Positions 15,299 through 43,871 of a stretch of 64,000 bases of DNA are shown in pieces. The first letter of the stretch is position 1. Each line of letters opens with the position of its first letter. The notes beneath the pieces are model-generated. The model made no database searches. It was not told the DNA's origin and worked only from the letters and a program-made list of their open reading frames with translations. Location: positions 1,483 to 65,482 of the IMG/VR virus record IMGVR_UViG_3300037808_001421. The stretch is one strand, 5' to 3'. The position numbers and the translations under genes are program-made. The stretch is from a virus (Duplodnaviria; Caudoviricetes).

Positions 15299-15720
15299 CT
15301 GCCAGGCCCCGGCTTTCTTGCAAACGGGCTGGTACCAGGCACCATTTCAATGCCAGTAGCCGCCAACTCGATGGACGCTTCGACGGCCTTCACCATCGCC
15401 GTCATGAGGTCTTCGAGGCCATTGTCTTTCACGTCGAACACTGTAGTAGCAGAGGTCGTGATCTGCTTCAGCGGACCCTTCAAACCAAACAGCGGAATCA
15501 ACGTGACCGTGGTGTTGACGCCCAGGAAGTCTCCGTTGCGCTCCCTAATCGGTTGCTGGAGTTCGAGCATCTGCCACACCTCGGTCAGGTACAGGGACCT
15601 GGAGGTGTCTTCTTTCCAGGCTTCGTAGTCGGCGTACGCTCCCGCTTCTTTGTCATCACCGTCACCCTCGAGGATGCCGTAGTAGTACTTTCCGCCGGGG
15701 GTAAGAACAACCAGTTTCAT
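15295..15720 (-). CDS. Hypothetical protein
   Basis: ORF track; start refined to ATG 15720. Confidence 0.6.
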
Positions 15721-17213: not shown

Positions 17214-17545
17214 TCCTCCAAAAATTGGGCAACCACCTCGACGACCACACTGGTCGTTCCTGAGATGAAGCCGTTGGTCACTGCGGTGGGTATGTGAACG
17301 CCCAGGCGCTCGGCATGGGCGAGCTCGCGTAGAGTGCGTAGCTCGTCCTGCTCGTGTTCCTGGATGTCGTAAAGTTCGATTAGTTGCTGGAGCTTAGGTC
17401 GTGTAGGCGTTTGTTCGTCCAGCTCGTAAGCTTCGATGACACCGTTGGCCATGCTGAGCGTTTGCTCAACAGGCCAGCGTTTCTTTCTGCAGGCCGCCCG
17501 AGCGGTCGCGAGCCTGGTTCCTAGCTCGCGACCGTGGGCGCCCAT
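17132..17545 (-). CDS. XRE-family HTH regulator
   Basis: LGTRLATARA...IEAYELDEQTP...LQQLIELY. Confidence 0.7.
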   Translation of the reverse strand: MGAHGRELGTRLATARAACRKKRWPVEQTLSMANGVIEAYELDEQTPTRPKLQQLIELYDIQEHEQDELRTLRELAHAERLGVHIPTAVTNGFISGTTSVVVEVVAQFLEDCELTLPPKERKVLSRRIRDGLRELFK

Positions 17546-17578
17546 AGTAGTGTGGGGGTGGCGTGCATGACGTATGTA

Positions 17579-18277
17579 CTACCGACCGTCACCCCAATAA
17601 TGCTGTCGGAAGAACTCCGATCCGAACTCGAAGAATCCTTGGAACGCGCCCCAAGAGGCTTCCTTGTAGAACATCTGGAAGAGGGTGTCTCCCTGGTCCT
17701 CTTGTTCTACCTCGGCCTTTGACGCGGGTCTCTTCTTTCCCTCGTCGCGTACGGCGTCGGCTGCTGCCTTCTTGCTGCGAGCCTTATCTCTAAGGCTGTT
17801 CATGGATACTCGTTGGCGATCCTTGCCTAGTAAGGATGGACGTCGGCTGACTTGGCCTGTTTTCTCTTTAGCCCACTCCGGCTTGGTCTTGTTTATCACG
17901 GTGTTTCTACGTTGCCCCAGGCTGGGCGCACGCGTCTGAAAGCCATATCTCGGCGTTGACGCGGGCGGCGATAGCTTCGTATGGACCTCGGTTTCGCAGT
18001 CGTTGAAGTAAGTGCATGACCTGCACTCCTTGTCGTATGCGAACTTGTCGGGGTCTGCGAAGCAGCATGGGCCTCCGTACTCGTGGTTGGCCGGGCAGTT
18101 CTCACAATCTTTTTCTGTGCGACCGTTGAAGCAGTCCGAGGTTACCTCCTCGAGCTCCTTCTCTTCGCGGTTTCTGTGGCTGTATCTCTTTGTGTTTCTA
18201 AGGGTCAGCAGTTTGGCTAACCTCCTGTTGCCTACAGTATTGATTGGCTTATCACCTGGATTCTTCAACTTTTGCAT
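17579..18277 (-). CDS. Cys-rich hypothetical protein (start uncertain)
   Basis: CF...CENC...CCF...CRSC...DC cluster; basic linker. Confidence 0.6.
   Translation of the reverse strand: MQKLKNPGDKPINTVGNRRLAKLLTLRNTKRYSHRNREEKELEEVTSDCFNGRTEKDCENCPANHEYGGPCCFADPDKFAYDKECRSCTYFNDCETEVHTKLSPPASTPRYGFQTRAPSLGQRRNTVINKTKPEWAKEKTGQVSRRPSLLGKDRQRVSMNSLRDKARSKKAAADAVRDEGKKRPASKAEVEQEDQGDTLFQMFYKEASWGAFQGFFEFGSEFFRQHYWGDGR
18248..18273 (-). promoter_or_regulatory. Candidate class-1 phage promoter (AAA-N15-GTGATAAG) near the head of the replication operon
   Basis: Imperfect match to motifs at 24407, 36225 and 38607. Confidence 0.35.
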
Positions 18278-20748: not shown

Positions 20749-21476
20749 AGAAAGCTCAGTTGCAAGCCCTGGAGTCCGAGCTCATCGCAATCAAGGAGGC
20801 ATCCTTCGCCAAGAACATAGCCACCTTCGCCGGCCGGCTCAAGCCCGGGAACATCATGAAGGGGATGGGCGAGGGCTGGGATATGTCATCGCCCACAGGT
20901 CTCTTGAAGGGCACCACCGAGATGGGTAAGGACTTCAAGAAGGTGCTCGACACTCGGAAGAGTCAGATTGCAGCCGGTGCTGCCGATGGCGCTACGCTAG
21001 GGGACAAAGCCAAGGGATTCCTGGCGAAGAACCTGGGCGCAGGCCAGTGGCTTCAGCCCGGCGCCAAGACCAGCCAGGGTGCTCAAGGCGTTGCCGAGCG
21101 TCTGTCTCGAGGCGGTTGGACAGGCGAAGGACGTCTCACCAAGTACATGCCTTTGGGGCAGAAGGGCGGGCACGCTCTGTACGCAGGGATGGCTGTTCCT
21201 GGTCTGGTGAAGTCCATGAAGCATGGGGATACCGGACAGGGTGGAGTCGCTGAACAGGCTGGCGGCTTGGCAGGATTCACAATTCCAGGTATTGCAGGTG
21301 CAGGCTTGGGCATGACTCCCTTGGTGATGGCGCTGGGTGCCTCCGAGGCTGGCAAGTACCTGGGGCGTAAAATTGACCAGCGGAACGACCCACAACCCTT
21401 CGAACGTCTTGAGCGAGACCATCGTTCAGTCAAGTCAAACCTCATGAGACAAACACTAGAGACGGTACCGCGGTAA
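20745..21476 (+). CDS. Gly-rich putative cargo/membrane protein with ELIAIKEA leader
   Basis: MKKAQLQALESELIAIKEASF; C-terminal GxxxG hydrophobic segments. Confidence 0.7.
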   Translation: MKKAQLQALESELIAIKEASFAKNIATFAGRLKPGNIMKGMGEGWDMSSPTGLLKGTTEMGKDFKKVLDTRKSQIAAGAADGATLGDKAKGFLAKNLGAGQWLQPGAKTSQGAQGVAERLSRGGWTGEGRLTKYMPLGQKGGHALYAGMAVPGLVKSMKHGDTGQGGVAEQAGGLAGFTIPGIAGAGLGMTPLVMALGASEAGKYLGRKIDQRNDPQPFERLERDHRSVKSNLMRQTLETVPR

Positions 21477-23491
21477 TGTCCTCAGATCTTCTACTCACGG
21501 GGTCCAGTGCGTCGAGGTTTACCTCTCGAGCTGGCCGGTCTCTTTCAGGTGAAGGCGTCACGTCCATCAGGTACCCCTCTCCCTTCTTCGACATCGCACA
21601 CACGTACCTGCCGAACTCCACGAAGGATCTCCTCAAGTGGTGCAGGTTCTACTTCCTCACGAATCCGCTCATCAACGCGGTCTGCTACAAGATGGCCGAG
21701 TACCCGGTCACGGACCTGCTGTTCGACACCGAGGATACTGAGCTCAAACGCAGGTGGACTCACCTGTTTCGACACATCCTCAAGTTCAAGAAGTTCCAGG
21801 TCGAAGCAGGGCTGGACTACAACACCTACGGCAACTGCTTCATCTCGATCTTCTACCCGTTCATCAAGTTCCTCATCTGCACGTCGTGCAGGAAGCGCGT
21901 TCGGGTTGATCGCCAGAAGTACACGTTCCGTGAGCATAGGTTCCATGGGACGTGCCGCTCCTGCCAGCACACGGGAGTGTTCAAAGTCTATGACCACTAC
22001 ATCCGGGCGGTGCAGGACCTTCGACTCATCCGATGGAATCCTGAGTACATCACCATTCGCCACAATGAGGCGACGGGCGAGAGCCAGTACTACTACCGTA
22101 TCCCGCCAGGTCTTGCGAACGACGTCCGCATGGCGAAGCGGCACACCATCGAACGAACGCCTCAGATCTTTGTGGATGCTCTGAGGAAGAACAAGCAGCT
22201 GCTGTTCAGCAGGGACAACATCTTCCACCTGAAGCGTCCGACCATCGCACAGAAGGACAAGGGCTGGGGTCTGCCAATGATCCTGCCCGTGCTGAAGGAC
22301 ACCTTCTATCTGCAGATTCTCAGGAAGGCGCAGGAAGCTATCGCTACAGAGCACATTGTACCGCTGCGCATTCTGTTCCCGCAGTCGGCATCGAACAGTG
22401 CTGACGTTTACTCAACGCTCAACCTGAGTAACTGGCGTAAGAAAATCGAGCAGGAGATCCTGCGCTGGCGTCTCGACAACAACTACATCCCCACGATGCC
22501 CATCCCGGTGGGTCAGCAGACCCTTGGCGGTGACGGACGAGCTCTCATGCTCGCGCAAGAGTACCGTGTCTGGGCGGAACACATCGTCGCAGGCATGGGC
22601 GTACCCATCGAGTTCGTCTTCGGCGGAATGCAGTACTCGGGTTCGAACGTCTCGATGAGAATCCTGGAGAATCACTTCCTGGATTACCGTGCAGACCATC
22701 AGGCGCTCATCCGCGACTTCCTCATGCCCAACATCGCAGCCTTCATGGGCTGGGAGAGGGTGCCGTTCCACTTCCGCAACTTCAAGATGGCGGATGACCT
22801 ACAGCGCAACGCGTTCCTCCTGAACTTGAACCAGGCTGGCAAGGTTTCGGACAAGTCGTTGCTCGAGGAGAGCGACTTCGATTCCTTGGTCGAGAACAAG
22901 CTCATTGCTGAGGAGCAAAAGTACGAGCTCGAGAACCAGAGACAGTCCGCAGTCGCCCAGGCACGTATTCAGGGTGAGTCTCAACTGGCGCTGGTCAAGT
23001 ACCAGAACCGGGCGATGATGATGCAGCAGCAGGCGCAGGGCGCCATGCAGCCTGTGGGCCCGAACCAGGCGCCAGGTATGCAGGGCATGGTCAGCCCAGA
23101 AGCCATGGGACAAGGCATGGTCGCGCAGCAGGGCATGGCTAACATGACCGGCGAAGCGACTGCCGGCCAGCCTATGGAGCCGCCTGAGCAGGACCCTGCG
23201 TCCGCGGCCAATGGCGCCATGCCAGGAGGCATGGCGTCTCCGCTCAACGAAGAGAGCGAATTCGGCGCCGACCTGGTTAGCATTGCCAAGAAGATCGCGG
23301 CACGTCTCGACCAGATGCCTGATGACCAGAAGCAATCTCACCTGATTGACCTCCAGCAACAGCAGCCTCAGTTGTACAGCTTTGTCCTCCAGTTGCTGCA
23401 GCAATCCGCTGGCGCGCATGTACCTTCTCAAGCACAGCCGTTGCCCGAGCAGAGACCGCCTCGCCGCGGGCCTGAAGCCGCAGCAGTCTAA
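21476..23491 (+). CDS. Portal protein with Zn-ribbon insertion
   Basis: NPLINAVCYKMAEYPV, LDYNTYGNCF, IFHLKRP..GWGLP, IVAGMGVP; CTSC...CRSC insert; Q/M/P-rich tail. Confidence 0.8.
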   Translation: MSSDLLLTGSSASRFTSRAGRSLSGEGVTSIRYPSPFFDIAHTYLPNSTKDLLKWCRFYFLTNPLINAVCYKMAEYPVTDLLFDTEDTELKRRWTHLFRHILKFKKFQVEAGLDYNTYGNCFISIFYPFIKFLICTSCRKRVRVDRQKYTFREHRFHGTCRSCQHTGVFKVYDHYIRAVQDLRLIRWNPEYITIRHNEATGESQYYYRIPPGLANDVRMAKRHTIERTPQIFVDALRKNKQLLFSRDNIFHLKRPTIAQKDKGWGLPMILPVLKDTFYLQILRKAQEAIATEHIVPLRILFPQSASNSADVYSTLNLSNWRKKIEQEILRWRLDNNYIPTMPIPVGQQTLGGDGRALMLAQEYRVWAEHIVAGMGVPIEFVFGGMQYSGSNVSMRILENHFLDYRADHQALIRDFLMPNIAAFMGWERVPFHFRNFKMADDLQRNAFLLNLNQAGKVSDKSLLEESDFDSLVENKLIAEEQKYELENQRQSAVAQARIQGESQLALVKYQNRAMMMQQQAQGAMQPVGPNQAPGMQGMVSPEAMGQGMVAQQGMANMTGEATAGQPMEPPEQDPASAANGAMPGGMASPLNEESEFGADLVSIAKKIAARLDQMPDDQKQSHLIDLQQQQPQLYSFVLQLLQQSAGAHVPSQAQPLPEQRPPRRGPEAAAV

Positions 23492-23514
23492 GGGCTAAGA
23501 AAACCTCCGCGACG

Positions 23515-23778
23515 CTACTCGAGCGTGCGGAGGCGTTTGATGCATGCAGGACATACGTGCTTGTGCAGGAATGACATCTCCTTTCGGATGCGGTCATCCA
23601 CCTTGTCGAGGAAGAGCTCGTTTTCGAACACCTCCATCAGGCATTCGATGGAGCACAGCTTCTTACGTGCCGTGACTCCATCGACTAGGCCCTTTCGGTT
23701 GATCTCAAAGATTTCCTCTTCGCAGGGGAGCTTGCACCTTTCGCACAGGACCCTACGCGCTTTTCTGGGAACGCCCAT
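23515..23778 (-). CDS. Small TRASH/MYM-like zinc-finger protein
   Basis: CERC...LCSIEC...VCPAC. Confidence 0.6.
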   Translation of the reverse strand: MGVPRKARRVLCERCKLPCEEEIFEINRKGLVDGVTARKKLCSIECLMEVFENELFLDKVDDRIRKEMSFLHKHVCPACIKRLRTLE

Positions 23779-24376
23779 TCCATAGCCAGCGGAAGAACTC
23801 CGCGTCCCAAGTTTCGCGGGCACACACCCAGTGGACGGCACCGAGTTTCTCGGGCCGGAACATCATGACGGACTTGCCGCCACTCACTGCGCCATACTCA
23901 ACAACGAGGGCCGTACCTGGCACGTCCTGTGAGAACTGGCTGTTACATAGGACACACCAATCCATGCGCTCGAACATGCGGATACCACCGTCGTAAGCGC
24001 ACGCTGCGTGTAGGAACCGAATACGCGCGTTGTCGCCAAACGCGTCTGGAATCAGGCGAGCAGGATGGCCCGTTGGATACCTGATCGTTCCTGTCCTGAG
24101 GCGGACGACAGCGTCGGTGTTCGGATCTACTTCTTCGAGGCAGCCTGTGCAGCGGATCTGTGGACCCGCCGGATTATCTCTTCTTCGATCAGGAGCTTGC
24201 TGAAGAATCCTGCGGCTCCGAAGAGCCCGGCGAGAAAGCCTGTTGCTGCTAGGCGGAGCATCAGCCCTCGCCTTCTTCGGGAGTCTCATCGTCCTCAGTG
24301 TCGTCGTTGGGTGCCCCTCCGACAGCCTCGTCCATTTCGTCTGAAAATTCGTCGAGGGATGAGCGGTCTCCCTCAT
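23753..24376 (-). CDS. Cys/His-rich protein with two treble-clef-like repeats
   Basis: CTGC...HAAC and CVLC...HWVC. Confidence 0.55.
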   Translation of the reverse strand: MRETAHPSTNFQTKWTRLSEGHPTTTLRTMRLPKKARADAPPSSNRLSRRALRSRRILQQAPDRRRDNPAGPQIRCTGCLEEVDPNTDAVVRLRTGTIRYPTGHPARLIPDAFGDNARIRFLHAACAYDGGIRMFERMDWCVLCNSQFSQDVPGTALVVEYGAVSGGKSVMMFRPEKLGAVHWVCARETWDAEFFRWLWNGRSQKSA

Positions 24377-24406
24377 TGCCTGGTTGATTTGAAGTGCTAT
24401 TTGCCA

Positions 24407-24441
24407 CTACGTCCCTTATGCCCATGCAACGCCTGGGTTTT
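24407..24441 (-). promoter_or_regulatory. Class-1 phage promoter AAA-N16-GGCATAAGGGACGTAG
   Basis: 15/16 identical to 36225-36240; intergenic, upstream of a minus-strand gene. Confidence 0.65.
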
Positions 24442-24521
24442 TATGCGCAGCACAGCCGTGTAATATGGCCCTTAGACGGCTCGAGCTGGCCCCGCGCCGG
24501 TGAAGAAGAGGCGCAGACAGC

Positions 24522-27500
24522 ATGACAGAGTTCAATCCTCAAAAAGAGTTCGACAACCTCAAGAGCTCGCTCACCGACACCATCAAGGATTACTTTCCCC
24601 TCGAGGGCGCCCGCCGCACACTGCGCGCAAAGCGTGTCTGGGTCGATGATAACAAGGACATCGACGACGTCACTGAGCAGAAGGCCGCGAAGATAAAGGG
24701 TCGTAGCTGGACGGTGCCTCTCAAAGCAGAGGTAGAGCTCGTAGACAACAAGACAGGCAAGGTCGTAGACAACAAGACGGTCTCCCTCGCTCAGCTGCCC
24801 AAGATCACCCGAAGGTACGGGTACATCGTCAAAGGCAACGAGTGGTCCCCCATCAACCAGTTTCGGCTGAAGTCAGGTGTCTACACTCGAGAGAAAGACA
24901 ACGGCGAGCTCGAGTCGCAATGGAACCTGGCCAAGGGCTATGGGTTCAAGATGCAGTTCGATCCGGACCCTAAGTCTCGGAAGATGAACATCACCCACGG
25001 GACGACGAACACGCCTCTGTACCCGGTGCTCAAAGCCATTGGTGTGGACGACGACGCCATTGAGAAGGCGTGGGGCAAAGAGCTCCTTACCGCCAACAAG
25101 AAGTACGAGGGCAGCCCCAGGCAGATGCGTCAGCTGTTCAAGACTCTGACGGGCAATGCCCCTCCTGAGAAGATGGAGGAAGTCACTGCCGGCATCCGTG
25201 AAGCCTTCGGCAAGACCGAGTTGCGTCCGGATTCTACCAAGCTGACGCTGGGCAAAGGGTTCGATACAGTCAACGGCTCCGCGCTGCTGACGGGTAGTAG
25301 GAAGATCCTCGACATCTCCAAGGGGAAGGCAGATCCTGATGACCGTGACAGCCTGCAGTTCAAGGACCTGTTCGGAGTGGAAGACTTGCTCACCGAGCGC
25401 ATAGGTAAGGACCGTCGCTTCAAGATTCTCAATCGCATGAAGAAGAAGGTTGATAGCGTGAAGAAGGTTCACGACGTCATCTCTCCCGACACATTCGGCA
25501 AGCACGTCACGTCCTTCTTCACGAGCTCGACGCTCGCTGACATGCCGAAGCAGCAGAACCCTGTCAGCTTCCTCGGTGAAGCTCGCAAGACCACCATTGG
25601 TGGGCAACACGGGCTGGAGAGCTCGAGGGCTATCTCGCTCGAGGCCCAGTCCATCAACGCTAGCCATGTTGGGTTCTTAGACCCAGTCAAGACTCCTGAG
25701 AATGACCGCATCGGTACAGTGCTGCAGATGTCCGCGGCGTCAACCAAGAAGGGGAAGACTATTCGTACGCGCGCCTTCAACATGAAGACGGGCAAGCTCG
25801 AGTACATCGAGCCGCACACGGCATTGAAGTCGCGGCTAGCTTTTCCTGACCAGTACACCTGGAAGAACGGAAAGCCCACAGCCATACATGACCGCGTGAA
25901 GATCACGGATGACGAGGGTGAGATCCGTAGCAGTGCCCCTAAGGACGTAGACTACGTTCTTCGTTCGACCAAGGGCCTCTTCGACCTGTCCACGAACATG
26001 ATCCCTTTCCTGTCGTCAGACCAGGGCAACCGTACGATGGTCGCCGCGCGTCAGCTCGAGCAGGCTGTTTCCCTGAAGCACCGCGAGCGCCCGCTGGTAC
26101 AGACCAAGTCAGAGGGGTCAACGACTTTCGAAGCCGTGATGGGGAAGCTCAACTCTCACGTTGCTCCCGTGGGTGGGAAAGTCACGAAGGTCACGAAGGA
26201 CAACATCATCATCAAGGACGCCAGTGGCAAGTCTAAGAAGGTTCCGATCTACAACGACTTCCCTCTGAACGACAACCACACCTTCATGACTGCCACTCCT
26301 GTCGTGAAGGTCGGTGACACTGTCGAGAAGGGCAAGCTGCTCGCGGATACCAACTACACCAAAGGTGGAGACCTGGCGCTAGGCACCAATCTCAACGTGG
26401 CGTACACGCCCTTCAAAGGATACAACTTTGAGGACGGTATCGTCATCTCAGAGAACGCGTCTAAGAAGCTGACCTCTGAGCACATGCACCGTGAAGGCAT
26501 CAAGAAAGAGCGGGGCACAGTTCTCAGTAAGAAGAGGTTCCTGGCTGAGACTGCGGGCCGGGTTACTAAAGAGCAGGCGGCGAAGCTCGATGATGAAGGT
26601 GTCGTCAGAGAGGGTACTCGACTCGTTCACGGCGACATCATGATAGGTGCGCTGAAGGAAGAGGCTGCCAGCCGGGAGAGGCAGGCGCTCGCGCAGTTCT
26701 CAAAGGGTAAGATCAAGCCCGTCGTTGCGCGGCCCCGCACCTGGGACAAGGAGTACGAAGGCACTGTCTCCCAGGTTGTCAGGCACGGTAAGGACACTAC
26801 GATCTACGTGAAGACTGAGACCCCCGCGGGCATTGGTGACAAGATCGTCGGCAGGCACGGCAACAAAGGCATCATCTCTATGGTCCTGCCTGACCACGAG
26901 ATGCCCCACACCAAAGACGGTGAGTCGATGGACGTACTGCTGAATCAGTCAGGCGTTCCGACCCGCATCAACTTGGGGCAGGCTCTCGAGACCGCGGCAA
27001 GTAAGATTGCCAAGAAGACAGGCAAGACTTACGTCGTCAACAACTTCGACCCCAAGAACCCCGACTACACAAGGGGGATGCTCAAGGAGCTCAAGGATCA
27101 CGGCCTATCCGACCAGGAGGAGTTGATCGATCCCCAAACTCGTAAGAGCTACGGCTCTGTTCTCGCCGGCAAGCAGTACATCATGAAGCTCGAGCACCAG
27201 GCCGAGAAGAAGATGAAGAACAGGTTCCGCGGACCGTACAGCGTGAACCGCTCACCCAAGGGTGGTGGTGACTCCGGCGGGCAGCAGATGGACATGTTCG
27301 GGCTGACGGCCCTGCTGGCGCACGGTGCCAAGGAGAATATCAGGGAGTCTCAGACCTCGCGTTCGGACATGAACGATGACTTCTGGATGTCCATCCAGGC
27401 GGGCGACCCGATCCCTGCTCCCAAGATTCCGTTCGCGTACAAGAAGTTCGAGGGCCTGCTACGCGCCGCCGGCGTCGACGTTGAGAAGAACGGTAACGAG

Positions 27501-30500
27501 CTTCAGCTTGCCCCCTTGACCGACTCTCAGGTCTTGAAGATGAGCAATGGTGAACTCAAGCGACCCGAGCGTAGGCTCGAGGGCAACGCCAAGCCCGCCG
27601 AGGGTGGCTTGTTCGACCCGGAGGTGACAGGTACTCGCTGGCCGAATGGTGAGATGGGCGACAAGTGGAGCCACATCAAGCTGGCGAAGCGTGTACCCAA
27701 CCCCGTCTTTGAGCAGCCAGTAAGAACACTGCTGGGCATGACGGGCAAGCAGTTCAACAGCGTCATGGCGGGTACAACCGCGCACGAAGGTGGTACTGGA
27801 CCTGACGCTATCGTGGCGTCACTCAACAAGATCAACACCAAGAAAGAGCTCGACCGTCTTCAGACTTCGGCCAAGGCTCTGCGTGGCGCCAAGCTGGACA
27901 CCGCGAACAAGAAGATTCGACTGCTGCGTGCGTTGAACGAAAAGAAGTTGAACCCCAAGGCCGCATACACGCTGGGGAACGTTCCCGTGCTGCCCCCGAC
28001 GATGCGACCCATCTCTCTGCTGGACAGTGGGGACTTGAATGAAGACGACACAACAGGGCTGTACGCCAACGTTGGGCAGGTCAACTACCAGCTGAAGAAC
28101 CTGGACCCGCGGCAGCCCATAGAGGACAAGCACGAGCTCCACTCTTCGCTCTACGATGGTGTGAAGGCTCTGATGATGACGGGCATGTCGCAGCATGGTC
28201 GGCACCGCAGCGGCATCATCGATACGATTTCAGGTGCTCAGAAGGGCAGCCCCAAGCACGGTTACTTCCAGAAGAAGATCATGGGCCGGCGCCAAGACCT
28301 GTCGTCCCGTGGTGTCATCATCCCGGAACCGAGTCTGAGCCTTGACGAGGTTGGGCTGCCTGCGAAGGCGGCTCGAGAAATCTTCAAGCCTTTCGTCGTA
28401 CGTCGCCTCGTCCACCAAGGTACGCCTTACTTGCGCGCGCAAGAGGCCGTTCGAGAGAACAAGCCTGAGGCGGAGAAGGCTCTCGAACTCGAGATGAACG
28501 AGCGCCCAGTACTCCTCAAGAGAGACCCCGTCCTGCACAAGTACGGTGTTCAGGCGTTCCGAGCTCGGAAGGTGAAGGGTCGAGCGATCAAGATCCACCC
28601 GCTGGTGACCGCAGGCTACAACGCAGACTTCGATGGCGATACGATGAGTGCGTTCGTGCCCATCTCTCAAAAGGCTGTTCGTGAAGCCAAGAGGATGATG
28701 CCCTCCAAGAACTTGTTCAGCCCGTCTGATGGCGGCATCACGAATGTCCCGACGCAGGAAGCGGTCCTCGGTCTGCATCACCTAACCAAGAAGGGTAAGA
28801 GGACAACGCGCAGGTTCAAGACTCCTGCGGAAGCAGCATCAGCAGCGTCGAGGGGTGAAATCGGAGTCACGGATGTGGTGACTGTCGACAACACTAAAGC
28901 GCTGACTATGCCTATGGTGAAGACAGCCGCGGCCAAGGGCGGAACGAGGACTACGGTAGGCCGTCTGATGGTTCAAGCAGCTCTGCCCAAGAGCGCACGG
29001 AGCGACGCCTTTCTGACCAGGGACGACGCTACACTGAACAAGAGGAAGGTCAAGGAGCTGCTCACCCGCGTGGCTGACAGTGACCCAGACAGCTTCGCCA
29101 AATCTGCAGATAAGCTGAAGGACCTAGGTAACTACCAATCGACAGGTACATCCTTTGGTCTGAAGGACCTGGTGTCAGATAACGTTCCTCGAGACAAGAT
29201 TCTCAACAGCATCAAGCCTGCGGAAAAGAGGATCCTCGACAACAAGAAGCTGACCAAGAAGCAGCGGGATGAACAACTGGTGTCTCTGTACCAAGGTGCA
29301 GACAAGGAGATTCAGAAGGTCACTCGAGCTCGCGCTGAGAAGAGTGACAACCGCATGTACGACCTGGTTCGTTCGGGTGCTCGAGGTAACTGGAACCAGT
29401 ATCGCCAGATGACAGTGGCACCGATGCTGGCAGTGGACTCTCGAAGCAAGGTCATCCCCACGTTGATCCCCAAGGCATATTCAGAGGGTCTTGACGTCGG
29501 CTCGTACTGGGCCGCTATGCACGGCGCGCGCATGGGTACGATCAGCCGGGTGCTCGGAACAGCACTGCCGGGCAAAGAGGCCAAGGCCATCACGCAGTCG
29601 ACCATCAACCAGGTGATTACCTCGGAAGATTGCGGAACAACACGCGGCCTGCGTATGGGTACCAAGGACGGAAACGTCGTGGACCGTGTTCTCGTGGCAC
29701 CCGTGACCTTGGGCAGCCGCGGAGGTAAAGAGAAAGGTTCGATCGCAGCAGGTACGATCGTCACCCCCGATGTCGTGGATCGCTTGCGCAACAACAAGGT
29801 CAAAGAGGTGTCTGTACGCACGCCGTACAAGTGCGAGGCAGGCCACGGCATGTGCAGCAAGTGCTTCGGTTTGAACGAGCGCGGTGATTTCCACGAGAAG
29901 GGCGTGAACGTAGGTGTGCTCGCCGCTCAAGCTATCGGTGAGCCTCTTGCCCAGATGTCGATGAACGCTTTCCATGAAGGTGGTGTCGCCGGCGCCAAGG
30001 GCTCGAGCGCTGTGAACAGGTTCAAGCGGATGGAGAACCTGACGCACTTCCCCAAGAAGCTGGCAGGCTCCGCGACTCTTGCGCTCGCCGGTGGCAAGGT
30101 CACTAAACTCGTCAAGGACCAGGCTACGGGTGGTCACCGTGTCAGTGTCGGTGACCAGGAGCATTACCTCCCTCCACGTAGCGCGGTGCGAGTGAAGAAG
30201 GGCCAGACCATCAAGAAGGGTGACGCCCTGACCATGGGCCCAAAGAACCCTCACGAGATGCTGCCGCTCACGGGCCTCGAGTCTGTGCAGAGGTACCTCA
30301 CGGAGGAGCTCTCGGACGCGTACGACAACCGTGAAGGCATCCACCGGAGGAACACCGAAGTCTTCGTCCGGTCGCTAACGAACTTGGGCAGGGTCAAGGA
30401 CCCAGGGCACCGAGACGACCTGCTTCACGGGGATCCGGTGCCCATCTCAGAGATTCGTGCATTCAACCGCGGCCTCGGGTCAGGCAAGAAGCCTGTGCAG

Positions 30501-30713
30501 GTGGAGCCTTACTTGCGCGGCACCAACTTGCTGCCCAAAGAGATGCAGACGGACTGGATGGCCCGTATGCAGCACTCCGGGTTGAAAGATACGATCCTCA
30601 CCGGCGCTGCCCGTGGCTGGAAGTCGAACCTTCATGGTACACATCCTGTACCGGGCATGGCGTACGGCAAGGAGTTTGGCAAGGGCACCGACGACGAGCC
30701 CTGGTCCTACTGA
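24522..30713 (+). CDS. rpoBC: Single-polypeptide fused beta + beta-prime DNA-directed RNA polymerase
   Basis: Beta: GYNFEDGIVIS, GDKIVGRHGNKG, SGVPTRINLGQ, YIMKLEH; beta-prime: PVLPPTMRP, LLKRDPVLH, YNADFDGD, SGARG, AAQAIGEPLAQMSMNAFH. Confidence 0.95.
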   Translation: MTEFNPQKEFDNLKSSLTDTIKDYFPLEGARRTLRAKRVWVDDNKDIDDVTEQKAAKIKGRSWTVPLKAEVELVDNKTGKVVDNKTVSLAQLPKITRRYGYIVKGNEWSPINQFRLKSGVYTREKDNGELESQWNLAKGYGFKMQFDPDPKSRKMNITHGTTNTPLYPVLKAIGVDDDAIEKAWGKELLTANKKYEGSPRQMRQLFKTLTGNAPPEKMEEVTAGIREAFGKTELRPDSTKLTLGKGFDTVNGSALLTGSRKILDISKGKADPDDRDSLQFKDLFGVEDLLTERIGKDRRFKILNRMKKKVDSVKKVHDVISPDTFGKHVTSFFTSSTLADMPKQQNPVSFLGEARKTTIGGQHGLESSRAISLEAQSINASHVGFLDPVKTPENDRIGTVLQMSAASTKKGKTIRTRAFNMKTGKLEYIEPHTALKSRLAFPDQYTWKNGKPTAIHDRVKITDDEGEIRSSAPKDVDYVLRSTKGLFDLSTNMIPFLSSDQGNRTMVAARQLEQAVSLKHRERPLVQTKSEGSTTFEAVMGKLNSHVAPVGGKVTKVTKDNIIIKDASGKSKKVPIYNDFPLNDNHTFMTATPVVKVGDTVEKGKLLADTNYTKGGDLALGTNLNVAYTPFKGYNFEDGIVISENASKKLTSEHMHREGIKKERGTVLSKKRFLAETAGRVTKEQAAKLDDEGVVREGTRLVHGDIMIGALKEEAASRERQALAQFSKGKIKPVVARPRTWDKEYEGTVSQVVRHGKDTTIYVKTETPAGIGDKIVGRHGNKGIISMVLPDHEMPHTKDGESMDVLLNQSGVPTRINLGQALETAASKIAKKTGKTYVVNNFDPKNPDYTRGMLKELKDHGLSDQEELIDPQTRKSYGSVLAGKQYIMKLEHQAEKKMKNRFRGPYSVNRSPKGGGDSGGQQMDMFGLTALLAHGAKENIRESQTSRSDMNDDFWMSIQAGDPIPAPKIPFAYKKFEGLLRAAGVDVEKNGNELQLAPLTDSQVLKMSNGELKRPERRLEGNAKPAEGGLFDPEVTGTRWPNGEMGDKWSHIKLAKRVPNPVFEQPVRTLLGMTGKQFNSVMAGTTAHEGGTGPDAIVASLNKINTKKELDRLQTSAKALRGAKLDTANKKIRLLRALNEKKLNPKAAYTLGNVPVLPPTMRPISLLDSGDLNEDDTTGLYANVGQVNYQLKNLDPRQPIEDKHELHSSLYDGVKALMMTGMSQHGRHRSGIIDTISGAQKGSPKHGYFQKKIMGRRQDLSSRGVIIPEPSLSLDEVGLPAKAAREIFKPFVVRRLVHQGTPYLRAQEAVRENKPEAEKALELEMNERPVLLKRDPVLHKYGVQAFRARKVKGRAIKIHPLVTAGYNADFDGDTMSAFVPISQKAVREAKRMMPSKNLFSPSDGGITNVPTQEAVLGLHHLTKKGKRTTRRFKTPAEAASAASRGEIGVTDVVTVDNTKALTMPMVKTAAAKGGTRTTVGRLMVQAALPKSARSDAFLTRDDATLNKRKVKELLTRVADSDPDSFAKSADKLKDLGNYQSTGTSFGLKDLVSDNVPRDKILNSIKPAEKRILDNKKLTKKQRDEQLVSLYQGADKEIQKVTRARAEKSDNRMYDLVRSGARGNWNQYRQMTVAPMLAVDSRSKVIPTLIPKAYSEGLDVGSYWAAMHGARMGTISRVLGTALPGKEAKAITQSTINQVITSEDCGTTRGLRMGTKDGNVVDRVLVAPVTLGSRGGKEKGSIAAGTIVTPDVVDRLRNNKVKEVSVRTPYKCEAGHGMCSKCFGLNERGDFHEKGVNVGVLAAQAIGEPLAQMSMNAFHEGGVAGAKGSSAVNRFKRMENLTHFPKKLAGSATLALAGGKVTKLVKDQATGGHRVSVGDQEHYLPPRSAVRVKKGQTIKKGDALTMGPKNPHEMLPLTGLESVQRYLTEELSDAYDNREGIHRRNTEVFVRSLTNLGRVKDPGHRDDLLHGDPVPISEIRAFNRGLGSGKKPVQVEPYLRGTNLLPKEMQTDWMARMQHSGLKDTILTGAARGWKSNLHGTHPVPGMAYGKEFGKGTDDEPWSY

Positions 30714-30717: not shown

Positions 30718-31893
30718 ATGGGCACTGAAACCGAATTCGTACCCGCCAACATCGAGACGGGTCGGATCATCAACGTCAACACACGGGACTGGACCGTCGA
30801 CGTGGTGACCATCTACGGGGACAAGCGTCACCTCGACATCCCAGTATCTTCTCCGTACTTGCACTTCATCAATGGTGAAGGCATCTACTCCATGCCTGAG
30901 GCAGGCGCTATCTGTTGGGTGTGTCAGCCGAGCGACGGACTGTGGGCACGCCCGTTCGTCATGGGCTTTCAGCCCCCAGTAGACGAACGGACGAGCTCGG
31001 TCACAGGAAACCAACTGGGTGAGTTCGCTGCTGGGCGCCCCAACCTGAACCCCGGCGACATCATGATGCGCACTCGGGATGAGAACTTCCTCATCCTGCG
31101 TAGAGGAGGCGTTGTTCAAATAGGTGCAACGCCTCTCGCGCAGCGCCTCTACCTACCAATAGACAACATCATCCGGGATATGTGTGGGCAGTACAACATG
31201 TTCAACCTCGCCGGCGAGATGACGTGGACGGTGGACCGGACAGAGAACTCCATCGACGGGCACACCACCACGCACTGCGCCATTCGAGTGAAGGGTCACG
31301 CTGACGAGCCTCTCCACGTAGCCGACCTGACCATTGGCTCTCACGTTGATGAGGACCTAGGGTTGCAGTTGACGATTTACGACACTGGCGCCGAGGACCG
31401 CATCGCACAAGTGGATTGCCAGATCACCAAGACGGGTGACGTCAAGTGGACTATCCAAAAGGACTTCACGGTAGACGCGCAGGGCATCATCGACCTGAAG
31501 GCGCAGGGTAACGTATCCTTAGAGTCCGCTGCGGCCGCGGCCGCGCTCAAGGGCCAGACAGACGTGACCATCGAGGCAGTGACCGGCATCCTTGCTGCTA
31601 TCGCAGGTACCAAAATCTCCCTGACGGCTCCTGCCCTCGAGATTCTTGCTCAAGCTATAAGCATCGGTGCTGAGAAGAACGGGGTCAAACCTGCCGTTTT
31701 GATTGGTGGATCTTCAGCCATCGAACCACTTGTTCTTGGAACCAAACTCCGCGTCGCCTTGGAAGCCTTGTGTGATGCCCTCATGTCAACGGTACCTGCG
31801 CCCGGTCAATCGCTTGGGATAGTTCAACCAGGATTTGCTGCGGTAAAAGCGCAGCTAGCCTTTATACTCAGTGCCAAGCACCGGACCTCTTAG
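30718..31893 (+). CDS. Baseplate spike/hub-like protein (gp5/GpV-type OB-fold + beta-helix)
   Basis: GRIINVNTRDWTVDV...MPEAGAICWV; beta-repeat C-half; EPLVLGTKL end. Confidence 0.6.
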   Translation: MGTETEFVPANIETGRIINVNTRDWTVDVVTIYGDKRHLDIPVSSPYLHFINGEGIYSMPEAGAICWVCQPSDGLWARPFVMGFQPPVDERTSSVTGNQLGEFAAGRPNLNPGDIMMRTRDENFLILRRGGVVQIGATPLAQRLYLPIDNIIRDMCGQYNMFNLAGEMTWTVDRTENSIDGHTTTHCAIRVKGHADEPLHVADLTIGSHVDEDLGLQLTIYDTGAEDRIAQVDCQITKTGDVKWTIQKDFTVDAQGIIDLKAQGNVSLESAAAAAALKGQTDVTIEAVTGILAAIAGTKISLTAPALEILAQAISIGAEKNGVKPAVLIGGSSAIEPLVLGTKLRVALEALCDALMSTVPAPGQSLGIVQPGFAAVKAQLAFILSAKHRTS

Positions 31894-31902: not shown

Positions 31903-34020
31903 ATGACGCAGCCTCTCTTTCTCGACCAAGCCCTCGACTTCGGAACCAAGACCGCCGGCACGCTCACTGCGATGAGCGACGACGGTGAGCGATGGGGCGA
32001 AGAAGTCCTCAGCGAAGCCTACCGCCAGATCTCGTTCCTGTCGGACTTCGACGTCAACGTGGCTATCGATAAAGAGGACCAGGAGCGTGGCTACGCTTGG
32101 GGTTCCATCGAAGTGCGGCCGCGCTCGGACATGAGTCCTGAGGAAGAAGGCGGCCGTCCGCTGGCGACGGTGCACATCCCGGTCATCATCAAGGACCAGA
32201 TGTTGTCGCCGCTGGACCTCTTCCTCGACATCGACGAGAAGCGCTACCAGCCCCTGACCGAGAGCCGCATGCGCAAAGCGCTCTTCCGTCCTGAGACCTT
32301 CGACGCCATTCGCACGGCGCCGCCGCAGCCCAGTCTCTACAACGAGCTCCAGCCTCCGCTGGGCTCGAGCGTTGGCGGCAGCATCAAGACAGGTGCGTTG
32401 GTCGACAAGGGCGTCGGCGCCGTCATGGGTGGCGTGGTCAAAGGGTCTGGGAAGCTCGCCATGGGTGTGAACATGGGTTCGAACGTGCTGCGCCAAGGTG
32501 CAAAGCTGGCGCATGTTCTGATGACTCCGCTGTTGCCGCAGCTTCAGGGCCGGGTGCGCTCAGACCACATCGCTCGCATCAAGACAGCTGTGATGGACGA
32601 CGCGCTACATGCGCAGATTCTCAACGCTGATGAGGGCGTCCGCGCGGCGTTCAGCTCTGCACTGAGCCTCGAGCCCCCTGACTTGGTCAAGACCGCGGCC
32701 GCGCTGTTCCCCAAGCCGAACGTCGTGCAGGTGAGCAAGGCCGGCAGGGGCAAGTACCGGGTGAAGTACGCCAACACTGGCATGTACGCGCCGGCGCAAG
32801 AGCAGGTGGGTCCCGAGCAGGCGCAGGCCGTACTTGGATCCCCCGATCTGGTGCAGCGGATGGAGGAAGATGGCTCGGTTACCATGAGTCCTGACGCCGC
32901 CATCAAGGAGACGTTGGACACCGGCGACATCAAGAACGTCGATCAGTTCGGTACCTGGCGGGTGCAGGACAAGATGGGGAACCAGCTCGTCGGCTGGGCG
33001 TTCCCGCAGGTCATGAGCATGGATCTGCAGCCCCTGCCTATGGTGCTGTTCACCAACGGCTCGCAGTACGCCATCGCCGAGACGATCGCTGGTCGCCTGG
33101 TAGGTAAGAGCACTGACCTGCCGAAGAGCCCACAGCCCGCGGGTTACGGCTTCCTCTATCACGTGGATGATGGGGGAGCTCGAGCCTTCGTCCCGATGAC
33201 CATTCGGGCGACCTTCACCAACCCGGCAGGCACTTTGTCCTACCAGGCCGTGAACGACATGGGCGAGATCGTGACCTTCAACATGGTCGAGGGGTTGAAA
33301 ACCATCGCCAAGGTGGGCGAAGGTACTTATGCCGTTCCGCTGAGTTTCCGCTGGCTTCCTCTCAAGGGCCAGACCGAGCTCATCGAGACGGCGGACATGT
33401 TCACCAAAACCGCTAACGCAGACTTCGTCCACAAGGTGTTCCTCCGTGGCGAGAAGGGAGCACACAGCTACAGCTTCGATGGGCCTCCCCTCACGAAGCT
33501 CGCCAGTGAAGAGAAGACGTTCCTGAACCGCGCAGATGCGGAGTTCCTCGGTGTTTCTCTCGGCATTTCGCCGGGACACATCAAGGTAGCTCTCGACAAG
33601 GCGGCCCTCGGTAAGCGCCTCGAGTTCAACGCGTGTCGCATGCTCACCACCGTCAAGGAGAAGATGGCGGCGGCGCGTGAGGCAGTCAAAGAAGACCTGC
33701 TCGACCTCGAGTACCCCATTCGCAACTTCAACCTCATCAAAGAGGCGTCAGTTCTTACGGATGCTCTGACCGCGGACAAGATCCTCGGCCTGGGCTTCCT
33801 CAACGCGGAGAACGTGGCGACCTTCGTGGACATGCTGCCTGGGCTCGAGCTGGCTTCCAGCCGTATCGCAGAGCTCTTGGTGTCCTCCCGTCTTGGGTTG
33901 GAGGAGGTACCGGAGATCGCACTCGAGCGGATGCTCGCAGCGATGAACGACGTCATCCTCGGGCTGAACAAGCTCAAACAACGGGAGATCACGTTCGCAG
34001 CAGACCAAGAGAGGGTCTAG
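31903..34020 (+). CDS. Large putative head/virion protein with about ten K-x-[AG] motifs
   Basis: TKTAG, IKTGA, AKLAH, IKTAV, VKTAA, TKTAN, TKLAS, IKEAS; AGGAG RBS. Confidence 0.75.
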   Translation: MTQPLFLDQALDFGTKTAGTLTAMSDDGERWGEEVLSEAYRQISFLSDFDVNVAIDKEDQERGYAWGSIEVRPRSDMSPEEEGGRPLATVHIPVIIKDQMLSPLDLFLDIDEKRYQPLTESRMRKALFRPETFDAIRTAPPQPSLYNELQPPLGSSVGGSIKTGALVDKGVGAVMGGVVKGSGKLAMGVNMGSNVLRQGAKLAHVLMTPLLPQLQGRVRSDHIARIKTAVMDDALHAQILNADEGVRAAFSSALSLEPPDLVKTAAALFPKPNVVQVSKAGRGKYRVKYANTGMYAPAQEQVGPEQAQAVLGSPDLVQRMEEDGSVTMSPDAAIKETLDTGDIKNVDQFGTWRVQDKMGNQLVGWAFPQVMSMDLQPLPMVLFTNGSQYAIAETIAGRLVGKSTDLPKSPQPAGYGFLYHVDDGGARAFVPMTIRATFTNPAGTLSYQAVNDMGEIVTFNMVEGLKTIAKVGEGTYAVPLSFRWLPLKGQTELIETADMFTKTANADFVHKVFLRGEKGAHSYSFDGPPLTKLASEEKTFLNRADAEFLGVSLGISPGHIKVALDKAALGKRLEFNACRMLTTVKEKMAAAREAVKEDLLDLEYPIRNFNLIKEASVLTDALTADKILGLGFLNAENVATFVDMLPGLELASSRIAELLVSSRLGLEEVPEIALERMLAAMNDVILGLNKLKQREITFAADQERV

Positions 34021-40803: not shown

Positions 40804-41137
40804 GGTCAGCGACCAACTCCTTGCTCAACGCTGGGCTGACGAACTCGACCATCTGGAGAAGACGGCGCGCTCCTACGCTAGGAAATCCTAGCGGGAGTGG
40901 GCCCGATTGGAACCAAGACGTTCGAGTACGGCGTTGCGGACTCAGGGCGTAAGGAACCATCTACGTCTCGAGCTCTGACAGGTGTTGCAGGCGGCCTAGT
41001 TGGTGGTGCTGTCTGGCGGCGCGACTCTCGGGATGTCAGGTTTGATTGGGGGAGGCGCCGCGGCCCTTCAGTACAAGAAGGGGCGGAAGTTCGGCAAGCC
41101 CCTCTCCAAGTCACAGATCGCAGAGGTTACGGCGTAA
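40796..41137 (+). pseudogene. Doubly frameshifted glycine-zipper cargo-like gene (or assembly indels)
   Basis: MSKVSDQLLAQRWADELDHLEKTARSYA / shift / EILAGVGPIGTKTFEYG...GVAGGLVGGAV / shift / GGATLGMSGLIGGGAAALQYKK...stop. Confidence 0.55.
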
Positions 41138-42068: not shown

Positions 42069-43871
42069 ATGCTGCTTGACGTCGCGAAGAAAGTCCAGGC
42101 GAGGCTATCGGAGAGCCGCTTCGGTGACCTCACTCTCGAGTCTTTTGATAACCCGTATGACTACGTTGAAGAGAACGACGAAGAGAAGGTAGACGTCCTT
42201 CCTTCCGAGTTCACTGAGTACGCCGTCCGAGTACCCGTGGCGGGTGGTCTCGAGGACTTCAGGTTTGCTGATCGCAGGTACCTCAGGCCCATTTACGACA
42301 CGCCATCCAAGCGCAGGGTCGTCATTGCAGGCCGTCAGGTTGAGAAGTCAACTCTCCTAGGCAACCAGTCGCTGGCATACATGGCGTTGATCCCTCACTT
42401 CAGGGTTCTATACGTCTCCACGTCGCATACCCAGACCAAAGTTTTTAGCCGTGACAGAATCAAGGAGCCGATGGAGGTCTCCCCCATCCTGGCGCAGTTC
42501 ACCAGCACGCAGCTTCTTTCTAACGTCCTGGAGAAGAAGCTCGTCAACGGTTCTCAAATCACGCTCCGGTTCGCGTTCCTCAACGCCGACCGTTGTCGTG
42601 GTATCCCGGCGGACTACGTCAACATCGACGAGTTCCAGGACATCATGATTGAGAACGTACCGGTCATCGAGGAGTGTGCGTCTCACTCGAAGTTTCGGAT
42701 GTTCACGTATTCGGGCACGCCCAAGTCTCTTGGCGGCTCGTTGGAGCATTACTGGTCTAAGTATTCAACACAGAACGAGTGGGTTGTACCTTGCCGCTCG
42801 CACACACCGATGCACTGGAACATTCTCAGTGAGGACAACATCGGTAAGAACGGTCTCATCTGCGACAAATGCAGCAGACCTATTCATGCAATGGACCCGG
42901 ACGCTCAATGGGCGTCCATGAACCCAGAACCTGACGTAGAGCTCCCCTTTGAGGGCTTCAGGCTACCGCAGCTAATGGTCCCGTGGATCGAGTGGCGGGA
43001 CATCCTGGACAAGCAGCGCAAGTACAGCCGCGCCAAGTTCTACAACGAGGTGCTTGGCCGCAGCTACGACTCAGGTACCCGCCCTCTTACGCAACAAGAC
43101 CTGAGAGGGAACTGCAACAACGAGCTCTCCATGGATGCTCTTCCAGAAGTGAAGAAGATCATCGGTCAGATCCAGGTCTGCATGGGCATCGACTGGGGTA
43201 CTGGAGAGAGCTCTTACACCGTCATCACGCTGGGTGCGTACCTGCCTTTCGCACCGGACAGGTTCACCATCTTCTATTGGAAACGCTGTGAGGGCCGAGA
43301 GGCGGAGCCGAAGGAACAGCTCAGCATCATCCGTAAGCTGGTCAACGACTACAATATCAGGCACATCGGAGCTGACTATGGCGGCGGGCACTGGCCGAAT
43401 GATGAATTGCTGCGGGACTACGGTTCCAACCGTGTCCACAAGTACCAGTGGGTAGGTAACGTAAAGAAGAAGATCAGCTACGAGCCGAGCCTGGGTATCC
43501 CGAGGTTCTTATGTCACCGCACGGAGATCATGAGTGACTACTTCAACGCGCTCAAGCGTGGTGATGTGTTCATGTTCCCTCGCTGGCCTGAGTTCAAGGA
43601 CCCCTTCGCTGCGGACCACATGAACATCTTCAGCGAGTTCAACGACAGGCTGCGGATGAACGTCTACAAGCATGCTCCTGGTATGCCGGATGACTCCGCG
43701 CACTCGGCCATCTTCTGCTTCCTGTGCTCTTTCTTCTTCAGGAAGAGGCCAGACGTGGTCCTGCCTCGCAAAGAACTGCAACGGCAGAACGAGATCTACG
43801 ACGGAAGCGTTGGGGACGTCGAGTCGATGGACATCGATCCCGAATACACCTACGACAATAATCAGAGCTAG
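42069..43871 (+). CDS. terL: Terminase large subunit (lambda GpA-like)
   Basis: Walker A GRQVEKST, Walker B NIDEFQD, SGTP, FYNEVLG, nuclease GIDWG, PDDSAH. Confidence 0.9.
   Translation: MLLDVAKKVQARLSESRFGDLTLESFDNPYDYVEENDEEKVDVLPSEFTEYAVRVPVAGGLEDFRFADRRYLRPIYDTPSKRRVVIAGRQVEKSTLLGNQSLAYMALIPHFRVLYVSTSHTQTKVFSRDRIKEPMEVSPILAQFTSTQLLSNVLEKKLVNGSQITLRFAFLNADRCRGIPADYVNIDEFQDIMIENVPVIEECASHSKFRMFTYSGTPKSLGGSLEHYWSKYSTQNEWVVPCRSHTPMHWNILSEDNIGKNGLICDKCSRPIHAMDPDAQWASMNPEPDVELPFEGFRLPQLMVPWIEWRDILDKQRKYSRAKFYNEVLGRSYDSGTRPLTQQDLRGNCNNELSMDALPEVKKIIGQIQVCMGIDWGTGESSYTVITLGAYLPFAPDRFTIFYWKRCEGREAEPKEQLSIIRKLVNDYNIRHIGADYGGGHWPNDELLRDYGSNRVHKYQWVGNVKKKISYEPSLGIPRFLCHRTEIMSDYFNALKRGDVFMFPRWPEFKDPFAADHMNIFSEFNDRLRMNVYKHAPGMPDDSAHSAIFCFLCSFFFRKRPDVVLPRKELQRQNEIYDGSVGDVESMDIDPEYTYDNNQS

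Follow-up and report, generated by a model that had tools for sequence, protein, structure and literature searches.

Can a tailed phage encode the catalytic core of a bacterial-type RNA polymerase (RNAP) in a single polypeptide, and with which partners, and at which stage of infection, would such an enzyme work? The question is raised by one gene in a 64,000-nt stretch of viral DNA (hereafter the window, positions 1,483 to 65,482 of the IMG/VR record IMGVR_UViG_3300037808_001421; Duplodnaviria, Caudoviricetes). The gene, at 24522..30713 on the plus strand, has an ATG start, encodes 2063 amino acids (aa) plus stop, and carries Pfam Rpb2 and Rpb1 domains, and we describe it here as a fused beta/beta-prime RNAP gene. 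The family to which its product belongs is abundant in databases and annotated as RNAP, and its architecture and partners are uncharacterised. On the evidence presented below, we think it fairly probable, though well short of certain, that the product is a single-chain RNAP core encoded by the phage, which has a phage sigma factor as its partner and probably travels in the virion.

The Pfam models Rpb2_3 (residues 343-406, E 2e-5) and Rpb2_6 (residues 548-914, E 4e-59) both matched the protein past their cut-offs, and Rpb1_1, Rpb1_2, Rpb1_3 and Rpb1_5 followed in the same frame between residues 1109 and 1962; the best solved relatives in the PDB were bacterial beta-prime chains (E 3e-116). As a ruler for the alignments we used the rpoB and rpoC products of Salmonella (contig L102), whose 1342 and 1407 aa equal the E. 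coli lengths quoted in an earlier note on this DNA. The beta module (24522..27485, plus strand), residues 1-988, aligned with Salmonella beta 27-1338, and the beta-prime module (27501..30710, plus strand), residues 994-2063, aligned with beta-prime 20-1387. In the pairwise alignments the junction between them (27486..27500, plus strand) amounts to five residues, 989-993, lying between the end of beta and residue 20 of beta-prime. A motif search placed the catalytic NADFDGD at residues 1367-1373 (28620..28640, plus strand), where A1368 and D1369-D1373 are invariant and N1367 is nearly invariant in 32 aligned family members. The bridge helix (HGAR) and the trigger loop (GEP..Q..FH.GG) are also present, with residues invariant or nearly so in the same 32 sequences. 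The description given in the earlier note, of one 2063-aa ORF (open reading frame) in which beta motifs are followed without a stop by beta-prime motifs including NADFDGD and the trigger loop, is therefore borne out by both the Pfam matches and the alignment.

The junction stretch of the RNAP gene was found in seawater metagenome runs. With the possible source run left out, and with assembled contigs rather than raw reads as the evidence, the junction was bridged by contigs of three other runs, X2 (26987-29360), X3 (27453-28189) and X5 (27360-27907), in pieces with zero differing letters and no indels or joints listed. Homologous proteins numbered 520 at E <= 0.001; among the 120 listed, 89 measured 2000-2130 aa, 27 were of 2300 aa or more, one was of 2294 aa and three were fragments. 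Viral relatives were retrieved with an alignment as query (a single-protein query gave none), and at least 502 stretches of viral contigs encode one. All synteny and junction counts given here refer to the best 80 of these stretches, 37-55% identical to the window protein, and in 80 of the 80 the junction lies in one open frame. That the fusion might have been created in assembly, a possibility raised beforehand, is thus answered by the three bridging runs and the open junctions.

Fusion accounts for the architecture of the chain, and its size could be traced to particular segments. Salmonella beta and beta-prime together exceed the protein by 686 aa, in agreement with the earlier estimate of about 700 aa against E. 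coli, and 438 of the 686 missing residues fall into four blocks (beta 241-345, 934-1037 and 1125-1178; beta-prime 960-1134). We take these blocks to be the lineage-specific insertions SI1, SI2, beta-i11 and beta-prime SI3, which are not present in many bacteria. AlphaFold2 models of the two halves, built on alignments of 45 and 46 sequences, reached a predicted local distance difference test (pLDDT) score of 84.4 and a predicted template modelling (pTM) score of 0.79 for the beta half (residues 1-993), and 83.0 and 0.73 for the beta-prime half. The best Foldseek match of the beta half was a whole bacterial beta (template modelling score over the query, TMq, 0.81; cyanobacterial chains with a score over the target, TMt, of 0.76), and that of the beta-prime half a whole bacterial beta-prime (TMq 0.80). 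As a bacterial-type core the enzyme is complete, and it ranks among the smaller ones. Of the label "streamlined" or "compact", then, the shorter length stands; most of the difference is explained by E. coli-type insertions, and both halves model as complete folds.

The one clearly missing functional element of the enzyme is the N-terminal zinc ribbon of beta-prime. At residues 1028-1054 (GGLFDP...WSHIKL; 27603..27683, plus strand) the alignment opens a 31-residue gap opposite Salmonella beta-prime C70, C72, C85 and C88, and the region is cysteine-free in 32 of 32 aligned family members as well as in the cultured phages Arash and D69, described below. The second zinc site (29631..29864, plus strand) is formed by C1704, C1771, C1778 and C1781, the sole cysteines of the protein, which correspond to beta-prime C814, C888, C895 and C898 through the alignment block 1610-1830 (beta-prime 720-959); all four are kept in 31 of the 32 family members. 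Loss of the first cysteine cluster and retention of the second, as originally proposed, was in this way confirmed against Salmonella. One family member of 2042 aa (P0058) has zero cysteines, with A, S, Y and D at the four positions of the second site, which on its sequence appears to be dispensable in at least this member.

A further departure from the cellular enzyme lies in the equivalent of rifampicin cluster I, placed by alignment at residues 332-360 (25515..25601, plus strand). Here Salmonella D516, H526 and S531 are replaced by K, E and T, and Q513 by D; these are presumably rifampicin-binding positions, and because they are substituted the enzyme should ignore rifampicin.

For the phylogenetic placement, the 20 cellular rows were picked from the loci that scored best against the family in the genomes of 185,579 species, a choice biased to similarity. 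In the beta-prime tree (IQ-TREE quick search, 47 rows) these 20 rows form one side of a branch with a Shimodaira-Hasegawa-like approximate likelihood ratio test (SH-aLRT) support of 100, and the window protein groups with its metagenomic family. The beta tree (FastTree, 52 rows) showed the same split of cellular and phage rows, again with support 100, and on its phage side Arash, D69 and three contigs binned in metagenome-assembled genomes (MAGs) make up a subclade. None of the cellular rows, although picked for similarity, is close to the window protein, whose identity to any cellular enzyme is about 27-32%. The phylogeny that the earlier note had asked for thus shows that the phage enzyme is not nested within host RpoBC, the cellular rows splitting off with support 100 in both trees.

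Four of the cellular sequences, L115, L119, L129 and L133, are themselves rpoB-rpoC fusions of 2515-2803 aa, from two Pseudomonadota MAGs, one Vermiphilus MAG and one Ratteibacteria MAG. They nest among the cellular rows in both trees and so arose independently of the phage fusion. At least 11 of the best genome matches were phage-like contigs binned in MAGs of unrelated phyla. These RNAP-bearing contigs (L104-L114, 15-183 kb) carry labels such as Leptolyngbyaceae, Gemmataceae, Thermoguttaceae, Dehalococcoidia, Bacillus, Deltaproteobacteria and even Aenigmatarchaeota, and they are probably mis-binned phage genomes rather than evidence on hosts. Rhizobium phage RHph_TM30 (Kleczkowskaviridae; L184) has a separate beta-prime gene of 1127 aa whose long branch joins the tree on the cellular side, and given this position phages may hold at least two unrelated bacterial-like RNAP lineages.

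The partners of the enzyme had to be sought beyond the window, which is part of a 65,482-bp linear virus contig, the phage genome being of about 190 kb. CheckV put the completeness of this contig at 34%, and no terminal repeats were found in it, which fits with its being a fragment. A complete relative with terminal repeats, the 192,446-bp genome G001, is colinear with the contig over about 131-192 kb and the start of G001, about one third of the genome, and 35 of the 71 contig ORFs have a match in it. Partner genes missing from the contig therefore say little about the phage. The earlier note had recognised no alpha, omega or sigma gene in the window: the models for sigma (Sigma70_r2 and a profile built from the phage sigma family) and for alpha (RNA_pol_A_bac) indeed matched nothing in the 65,482-bp contig, where the omega and RNA_pol_L models were not run, and in a fragment such an absence counts for little.

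In G001, an ORF of 252 aa matched Pfam Sigma70_r3 past the cut-off, with weak matches to regions 2 and 4. It has 60 homologues, several of them named "specialized sigma subunit" by their source, and the profile of this phage sigma family matched RpoS, SigA and RpoD over regions 2-4 (E 5e-14). A sigma-70-family homologue was present in 10 of 10 near-complete relatives (92-100% complete), and Gp10 of Arash belongs to the same family (27% identity, E 2e-20). Given these occurrences in all ten relatives and in Arash, it is unlikely that the RNAP is sigma-independent.

The elements expected to hold sigma are near bacterial length in the window protein. The clamp helices, the expected sigma-binding site (residues ~1172-1220, corresponding to beta-prime 260-309; 28035..28181, plus strand), are one residue shorter and form two long helices in the AlphaFold2 model; the flap and flap-tip region (residues 704-754, corresponding to beta 880-935; 26631..26783, plus strand) is present, three residues shorter and divergent in sequence. 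A complex predicted for the N-terminal 470 residues of G001 beta-prime with the G001 sigma scored 0.68, compared with 0.01 for the best control; the mark applied to this score is reached by 58 of 80 solved complexes and by 2 of 110 mismatched pairs. The runs shared at least 41% of contacts, with a partner pLDDT of at least 65, and sigma contacted residues 191-225 of the first chain, that is the clamp helices, equivalent to ~1179-1213 of the window protein. Such a score expresses likeness to solved sigma-clamp complexes and is no proof that these copies bind. The relatives, in short, possess the sigma gene, and the binding of its product to the clamp helices is a prediction of the modelling.

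Alpha and omega gave a different picture. The alpha model PF01000 matched in 0 of the 10 near-complete relatives, and the alpha dimerisation model PF01193 and the omega model PF01192 each in 0 of 5, with search controls positive in 14 of 14 genomes. In view of these blanks, independence from a phage-encoded alpha is plausible. One RNAP locus was found in G001 and one in the contig of the window. The small ORFs between portal and RNAP genes were considered as omega- or alpha-like subunits and rejected, with no syntenic homologue in 74-76 loci and no Pfam match for the three that were scanned.

The surroundings of the RNAP gene are those of a structural module. Upstream and on the same strand lies the portal gene (21476..23491, plus strand), with 31% identity over 470 aa to the Arash portal Gp204 (E 6e-84), an arrangement shared by 65 of the 67 related loci whose flanks reach far enough. 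Directly downstream, starting 4 nt past the RNAP stop, a 391-aa gene for a gp5-like baseplate central spike (30718..31893, plus strand) is syntenic in 64 of 72 loci; this gene was considered as an RNAP factor and rejected, since a profile of 32 homologues matched the T4 gp5 beta-helix (E 2.4e-5). The gene for the large terminase subunit (TerL; 42069..43871, plus strand), recognised by Pfam GpA_ATPase (PF05876, E 2.5e-6) and 29% identical to Arash terminase gp1, belongs to the same plus-strand gene run as the RNAP. Homologues of the Arash virion proteins Gp222, Gp233, Gp236 and Gp237 also lie further downstream. With the portal upstream, the spike directly downstream and TerL at 42069, the placement of the RNAP inside a morphogenesis cluster holds as first reported.

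A search of a phage collection provided cultured relatives, namely Salmonella phage Arash and Vibrio phages D69, D148 and D181, whose RNAPs are 30-32% identical to the window protein. Arash and D69 fall in the same phage RNAP clade of the beta tree and share with the window protein the beta/beta-prime junction, the lost zinc ribbon and the four second-site cysteines; as in the window phage, the RNAP gene of Arash follows the portal gene, and Arash has a sigma-family gene (Gp10). The window protein is one chain, whereas in Arash and the Vibrio phages a break behind the catalytic barrel of beta-prime leaves two pieces, beta plus beta-prime-N (~1525 aa) and beta-prime-C (~606 aa). Nine genes separate the pieces in Arash, and a homing endonuclease lies under the match in D148 and D181. 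The fully fused, one-piece form was found in none of the 50,697 records of the collection.

Mass spectrometry of sucrose-gradient-purified Arash particles, as listed in PMC10585845, gave 116 proteins. In the same list the most detected was Gp206 (beta plus beta-prime-N; 128 unique peptides, 3516 spectra), with more spectra than the portal Gp204 (32 unique peptides, 877 spectra) and the major capsid protein; Gp216 (beta-prime-C) was represented by 40 unique peptides and 1210 spectra, and the sigma Gp10 by 24 unique peptides and 467 spectra (PMC10585845). The conserved late module of portal, RNAP and central spike, together with the abundance of RNAP and sigma in Arash particles, suggests that the enzyme is probably packaged and injected.

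From these observations a course of events can be proposed. The single chain would fold to the usual crab-claw, and its covalent linkage would stand in for the assembly role of the alpha dimer. A phage sigma-70-family protein of about 250 aa, whose gene in this phage would sit in the part of the genome outside the window, would dock on the beta-prime clamp helices and steer the enzyme to phage promoters. Through the substitutions in the rifampicin pocket the enzyme would ignore the drug, and phage transcription could proceed independently of the host RNAP. The RNAP would be packaged and injected for early transcription and, as the sole RNAP gene, it would also be made anew for later genes. Packaging and injection are probably the weakest step of this scheme.

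Several points weigh against this course of events. The Arash particle list also includes ribonucleotide reductases and helicases, and the authors raise the carry-over of abundant infection proteins (PMC10585845). The Arash RNAP is just 32% identical to the window protein, and in two pieces. The sigma gene is absent from the window and from its contig and was deduced from relatives whose RNAPs are 37-53% identical. The absence of alpha and omega was read solely from Pfam models, which a very divergent substitute would escape, and use of host alpha or omega is possible. Expectations on rifampicin depend on the roles ascribed to the pocket residues. In about 5 kb of the intergenic regions of the window, a quick k-mer search gave no clear shared promoter motif, and none of the runs found to contain the RNAP stretch was an RNA run. 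A consensus promoter scan around the RNAP gene likewise gave nothing convincing.

The first of these points leads to the alternative that fares best, in which the enzyme is not a virion component: it would be made after infection for middle and late genes only, the host RNAP would read the early genes, and the Arash signal would be carry-over. The many metabolic enzymes in the Arash preparation (PMC10585845) agree with it; moreover the protein runs from beta 27 to beta-prime 1387, with no domain added at either end to act as a packaging signal, and a phage sigma could equally redirect a newly made enzyme to late promoters. Set against this is that Gp206 was the most detected protein, with more spectra than portal or major capsid protein (PMC10585845). 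The place of the RNAP gene between portal and central spike, moreover, is kept in most of the 80 loci. This placement resembles that of the virion RNAP genes of N4-like and crAss-like phages. We regard a purely intracellular role as unlikely, but as an explanation to be taken seriously.

A second alternative concerns the partners. In a hybrid enzyme the fused chain would replace only the host beta and beta-prime and would use the host alpha dimer, omega and perhaps sigma. Since both halves are complete folds, from which only the zinc ribbon and lineage-specific insertions are gone, the alpha-facing surfaces could remain; cellular RpoBC fusions exist (the four described above), and that of Helicobacter still uses alpha. 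An identity of just ~27-32% to cellular enzymes speaks against such an assembly. Related contigs, moreover, are binned with at least five bacterial phyla and in two archaeal bins; binning is not evidence on hosts, and if the hosts did vary so widely, a fit to host alpha would be hard to conserve. Known phage multisubunit RNAPs also work without alpha, as stated in a 2026 review (PMC13282480). We judge the hybrid enzyme improbable, a shade more so than a role confined to the infected cell.

A mis-joined rpoB-rpoC, a pseudogene or a recently captured host gene, for which, apart from some phage-collection records that do carry cellular rpoBC (H4, H8), only a general possibility can be cited, is refuted by the contigs of three other runs that cross the junction, the open junction in 80 of 80 loci, the 2000-2130 aa of 89 of the 120 listed homologues, the split, supported at 100 in each tree, between the protein and the cellular rows and the colinearity of the contig with a complete 192-kb phage genome with terminal repeats, and we give it practically no weight. 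The reading that we retain is that of a single-chain phage core working with a phage sigma.

Among described systems, a further close one is the group named "multimeric RNAP-encoding Caudovirales" (mReC) by Weinheimer and Aylward in 2020, where the text of PMC7481178 consulted does not mention fusion. Like the window phage, mReC are uncultured tailed phages, some of ~200 kb, whose RNAP subunits can be recognised by cellular models, branch deeply as a clade separate from cells and are encoded among structural genes, as stated there (PMC7481178). The window RNAP was likewise found by cellular models and branches apart from cells. The mReC capsid family PF07068 matched in 0 of 5 complete relatives at E <= 1 and in none of the scanned ORFs of the window, and the mReC terminase family PF03237 was not found, the window terminase matching PF05876 only at E <= 0.01. 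Since neither family was found, we do not assign the phage to mReC.

The RNAPs of phiKZ and AR9 are, like the window enzyme, of the phage multisubunit type, and theirs lack alpha and omega; one set is virion-packaged, and transcription is independent of the host RNAP, according to the portions consulted of PMC7598289 and PMC13282480. They consist of four or five very divergent polypeptides, whereas the window enzyme is one chain and close to bacterial enzymes; the window protein gave a weak, partial match to phrog_3148 (E 4.6e-13) and matched phage YerA41 with E 1e-21 and 25% identity over 43% of the query. Their specificity subunits are non-sigma or sigma-like (gp68, gp226), in contrast to the sigma-70-family gene of the window relatives. 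The reviews of jumbo-phage RNAPs, in the parts available to us, describe split, sigma-less enzymes and phage RNAPs without homologues of alpha, sigma and omega (PMC7598289, PMC7824862, PMC13282480). A phiKZ-type enzyme would thus have split beta and beta-prime and no sigma family; here there is one 2063-aa chain, with sigma in the relatives.

A single chain is also found in the crAss-like gp66 and in the tape-measure-fused RNAP of Thermus phage P23-45, which are two-barrel enzymes of the structural module and virion-delivered, as far as the parts consulted of PMC7481178 and PMC10770324 report. Unlike the window protein, the crAss-like RNAP is undetectable by cellular beta and beta-prime models (PMC7481178), and that of P23-45 is called unusual in its abstract (PMC10770324), whereas the window protein folds as complete beta/beta-prime. 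The cellular RpoBC fusions join beta head-to-tail with beta-prime in one frame, like the window protein, and differ in their 2515-2803 aa and in being nested among cellular sequences, with the window protein outside. RpoBC fusions occur in Helicobacter and Wolbachia, and cellular RpoBC fusions keep the zinc ribbon and work with alpha. In the literature covered, with supplements and subscription journals outside the search, no fused, sigma-partnered phage RNAP and no zinc-ribbon loss was described.

Other features of the homologues and of the window are recorded here. Most of the 27 homologues of 2300 aa or more (within P0004-P0121) carry LAGLIDADG, Hom_end or intein-splicing Pfam domains. Their insertion points correspond to window residues ~393, 652, 776-788, 814, 948, 1373-1377 and 1818. 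The insertions repeatedly fall at the best-conserved motifs, for instance immediately behind NADFDGD and within FH.GG of the trigger loop, as is typical of inteins. The RNAP gene of the window itself has zero such insertions.

The spacer of ~1 kb between portal and RNAP genes (23492..24521) is variable, with small unconserved ORFs on both strands. Three of these lacked a syntenic counterpart in the 74-76 loci whose flanks were long enough: two had no match at all, and the minus-strand ORF of 207 aa had one match, which does not share its place and strand. Pfam gave nothing for the ORFs 24065-24463 (plus strand), 23753-24376 (minus) and 23515-23841 (minus), the 86-aa ORF 23525-23785 (plus) not being scanned. 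The 12-mer GGGCTAAGAAAA occurs at window positions 1347 and 23492, both just past a gene end, and the copy at 23492 is followed by a GC-rich hairpin (cctccgc...gcggagg); this may be a terminator or a processing site.

Past the spike, a conserved 705-aa protein to which no function was assigned (31903..34020, plus strand) is syntenic in 67 of 68 loci and had no Pfam or PHROG match and no usable Atlas match. An 852-aa protein (46063-48621) carries an inorganic pyrophosphatase domain (PF18823, E 2e-30), and its N-terminal part matches Arash Gp222, which is listed among virion proteins. PHROG gave no match for eight neighbouring proteins, and most plus-strand neighbours had none in Pfam. Two nearly coextensive ORFs lie on opposite strands at 51877-53016 (minus) and 51883-53007 (plus); the minus-strand ORF, picked by the greedy gene call, matches G001, and all genes around the pair run on the plus strand. 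Either strand may thus be the coding one, and the region may be that of the capsid gene.

The left arm of the window (1-18277, minus strand) is a replication module with a RecA/UvsX-like protein, a family A DNA polymerase, a DnaG-type primase, a DnaB-type helicase, a member of the uracil-DNA glycosylase family and an SF2 helicase, and it diverges from the structural arm at ~18.27 kb. A gene for RNase HII (41127-41729, minus strand) adjoins the terminase gene. No tRNA genes were found in the window.

Taken to its full extent, the scheme would mean that marine phages of ~190 kb carry and inject a virion holoenzyme made of one beta/beta-prime chain and a sigma-70-family factor, without alpha, omega and zinc ribbon, and are independent of the host RNAP from the first minute; we put this forward tentatively, as an idea more doubtful than the single-chain core itself. 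If true, it would be the smallest known sigma-dependent RNAP and a third route to virion-borne transcription, beside those of the N4 type and the phiKZ/crAss type. Should one chain and one sigma suffice, they would represent a natural minimal bacterial transcription machine, with which one could ask directly what the alpha dimer, omega and the zinc ribbon of beta-prime are needed for in cells. Such an enzyme would also be handy in structural studies and in orthogonal expression systems that are probably insensitive to rifampicin. The fully fused form has no member in the cultured-phage collection searched; in metagenomes the fused RNAP is the hallmark of a large clade of big phages from marine and fresh waters, comprising more than 500 viral contigs, which is probably independent of the RNAP of its hosts.

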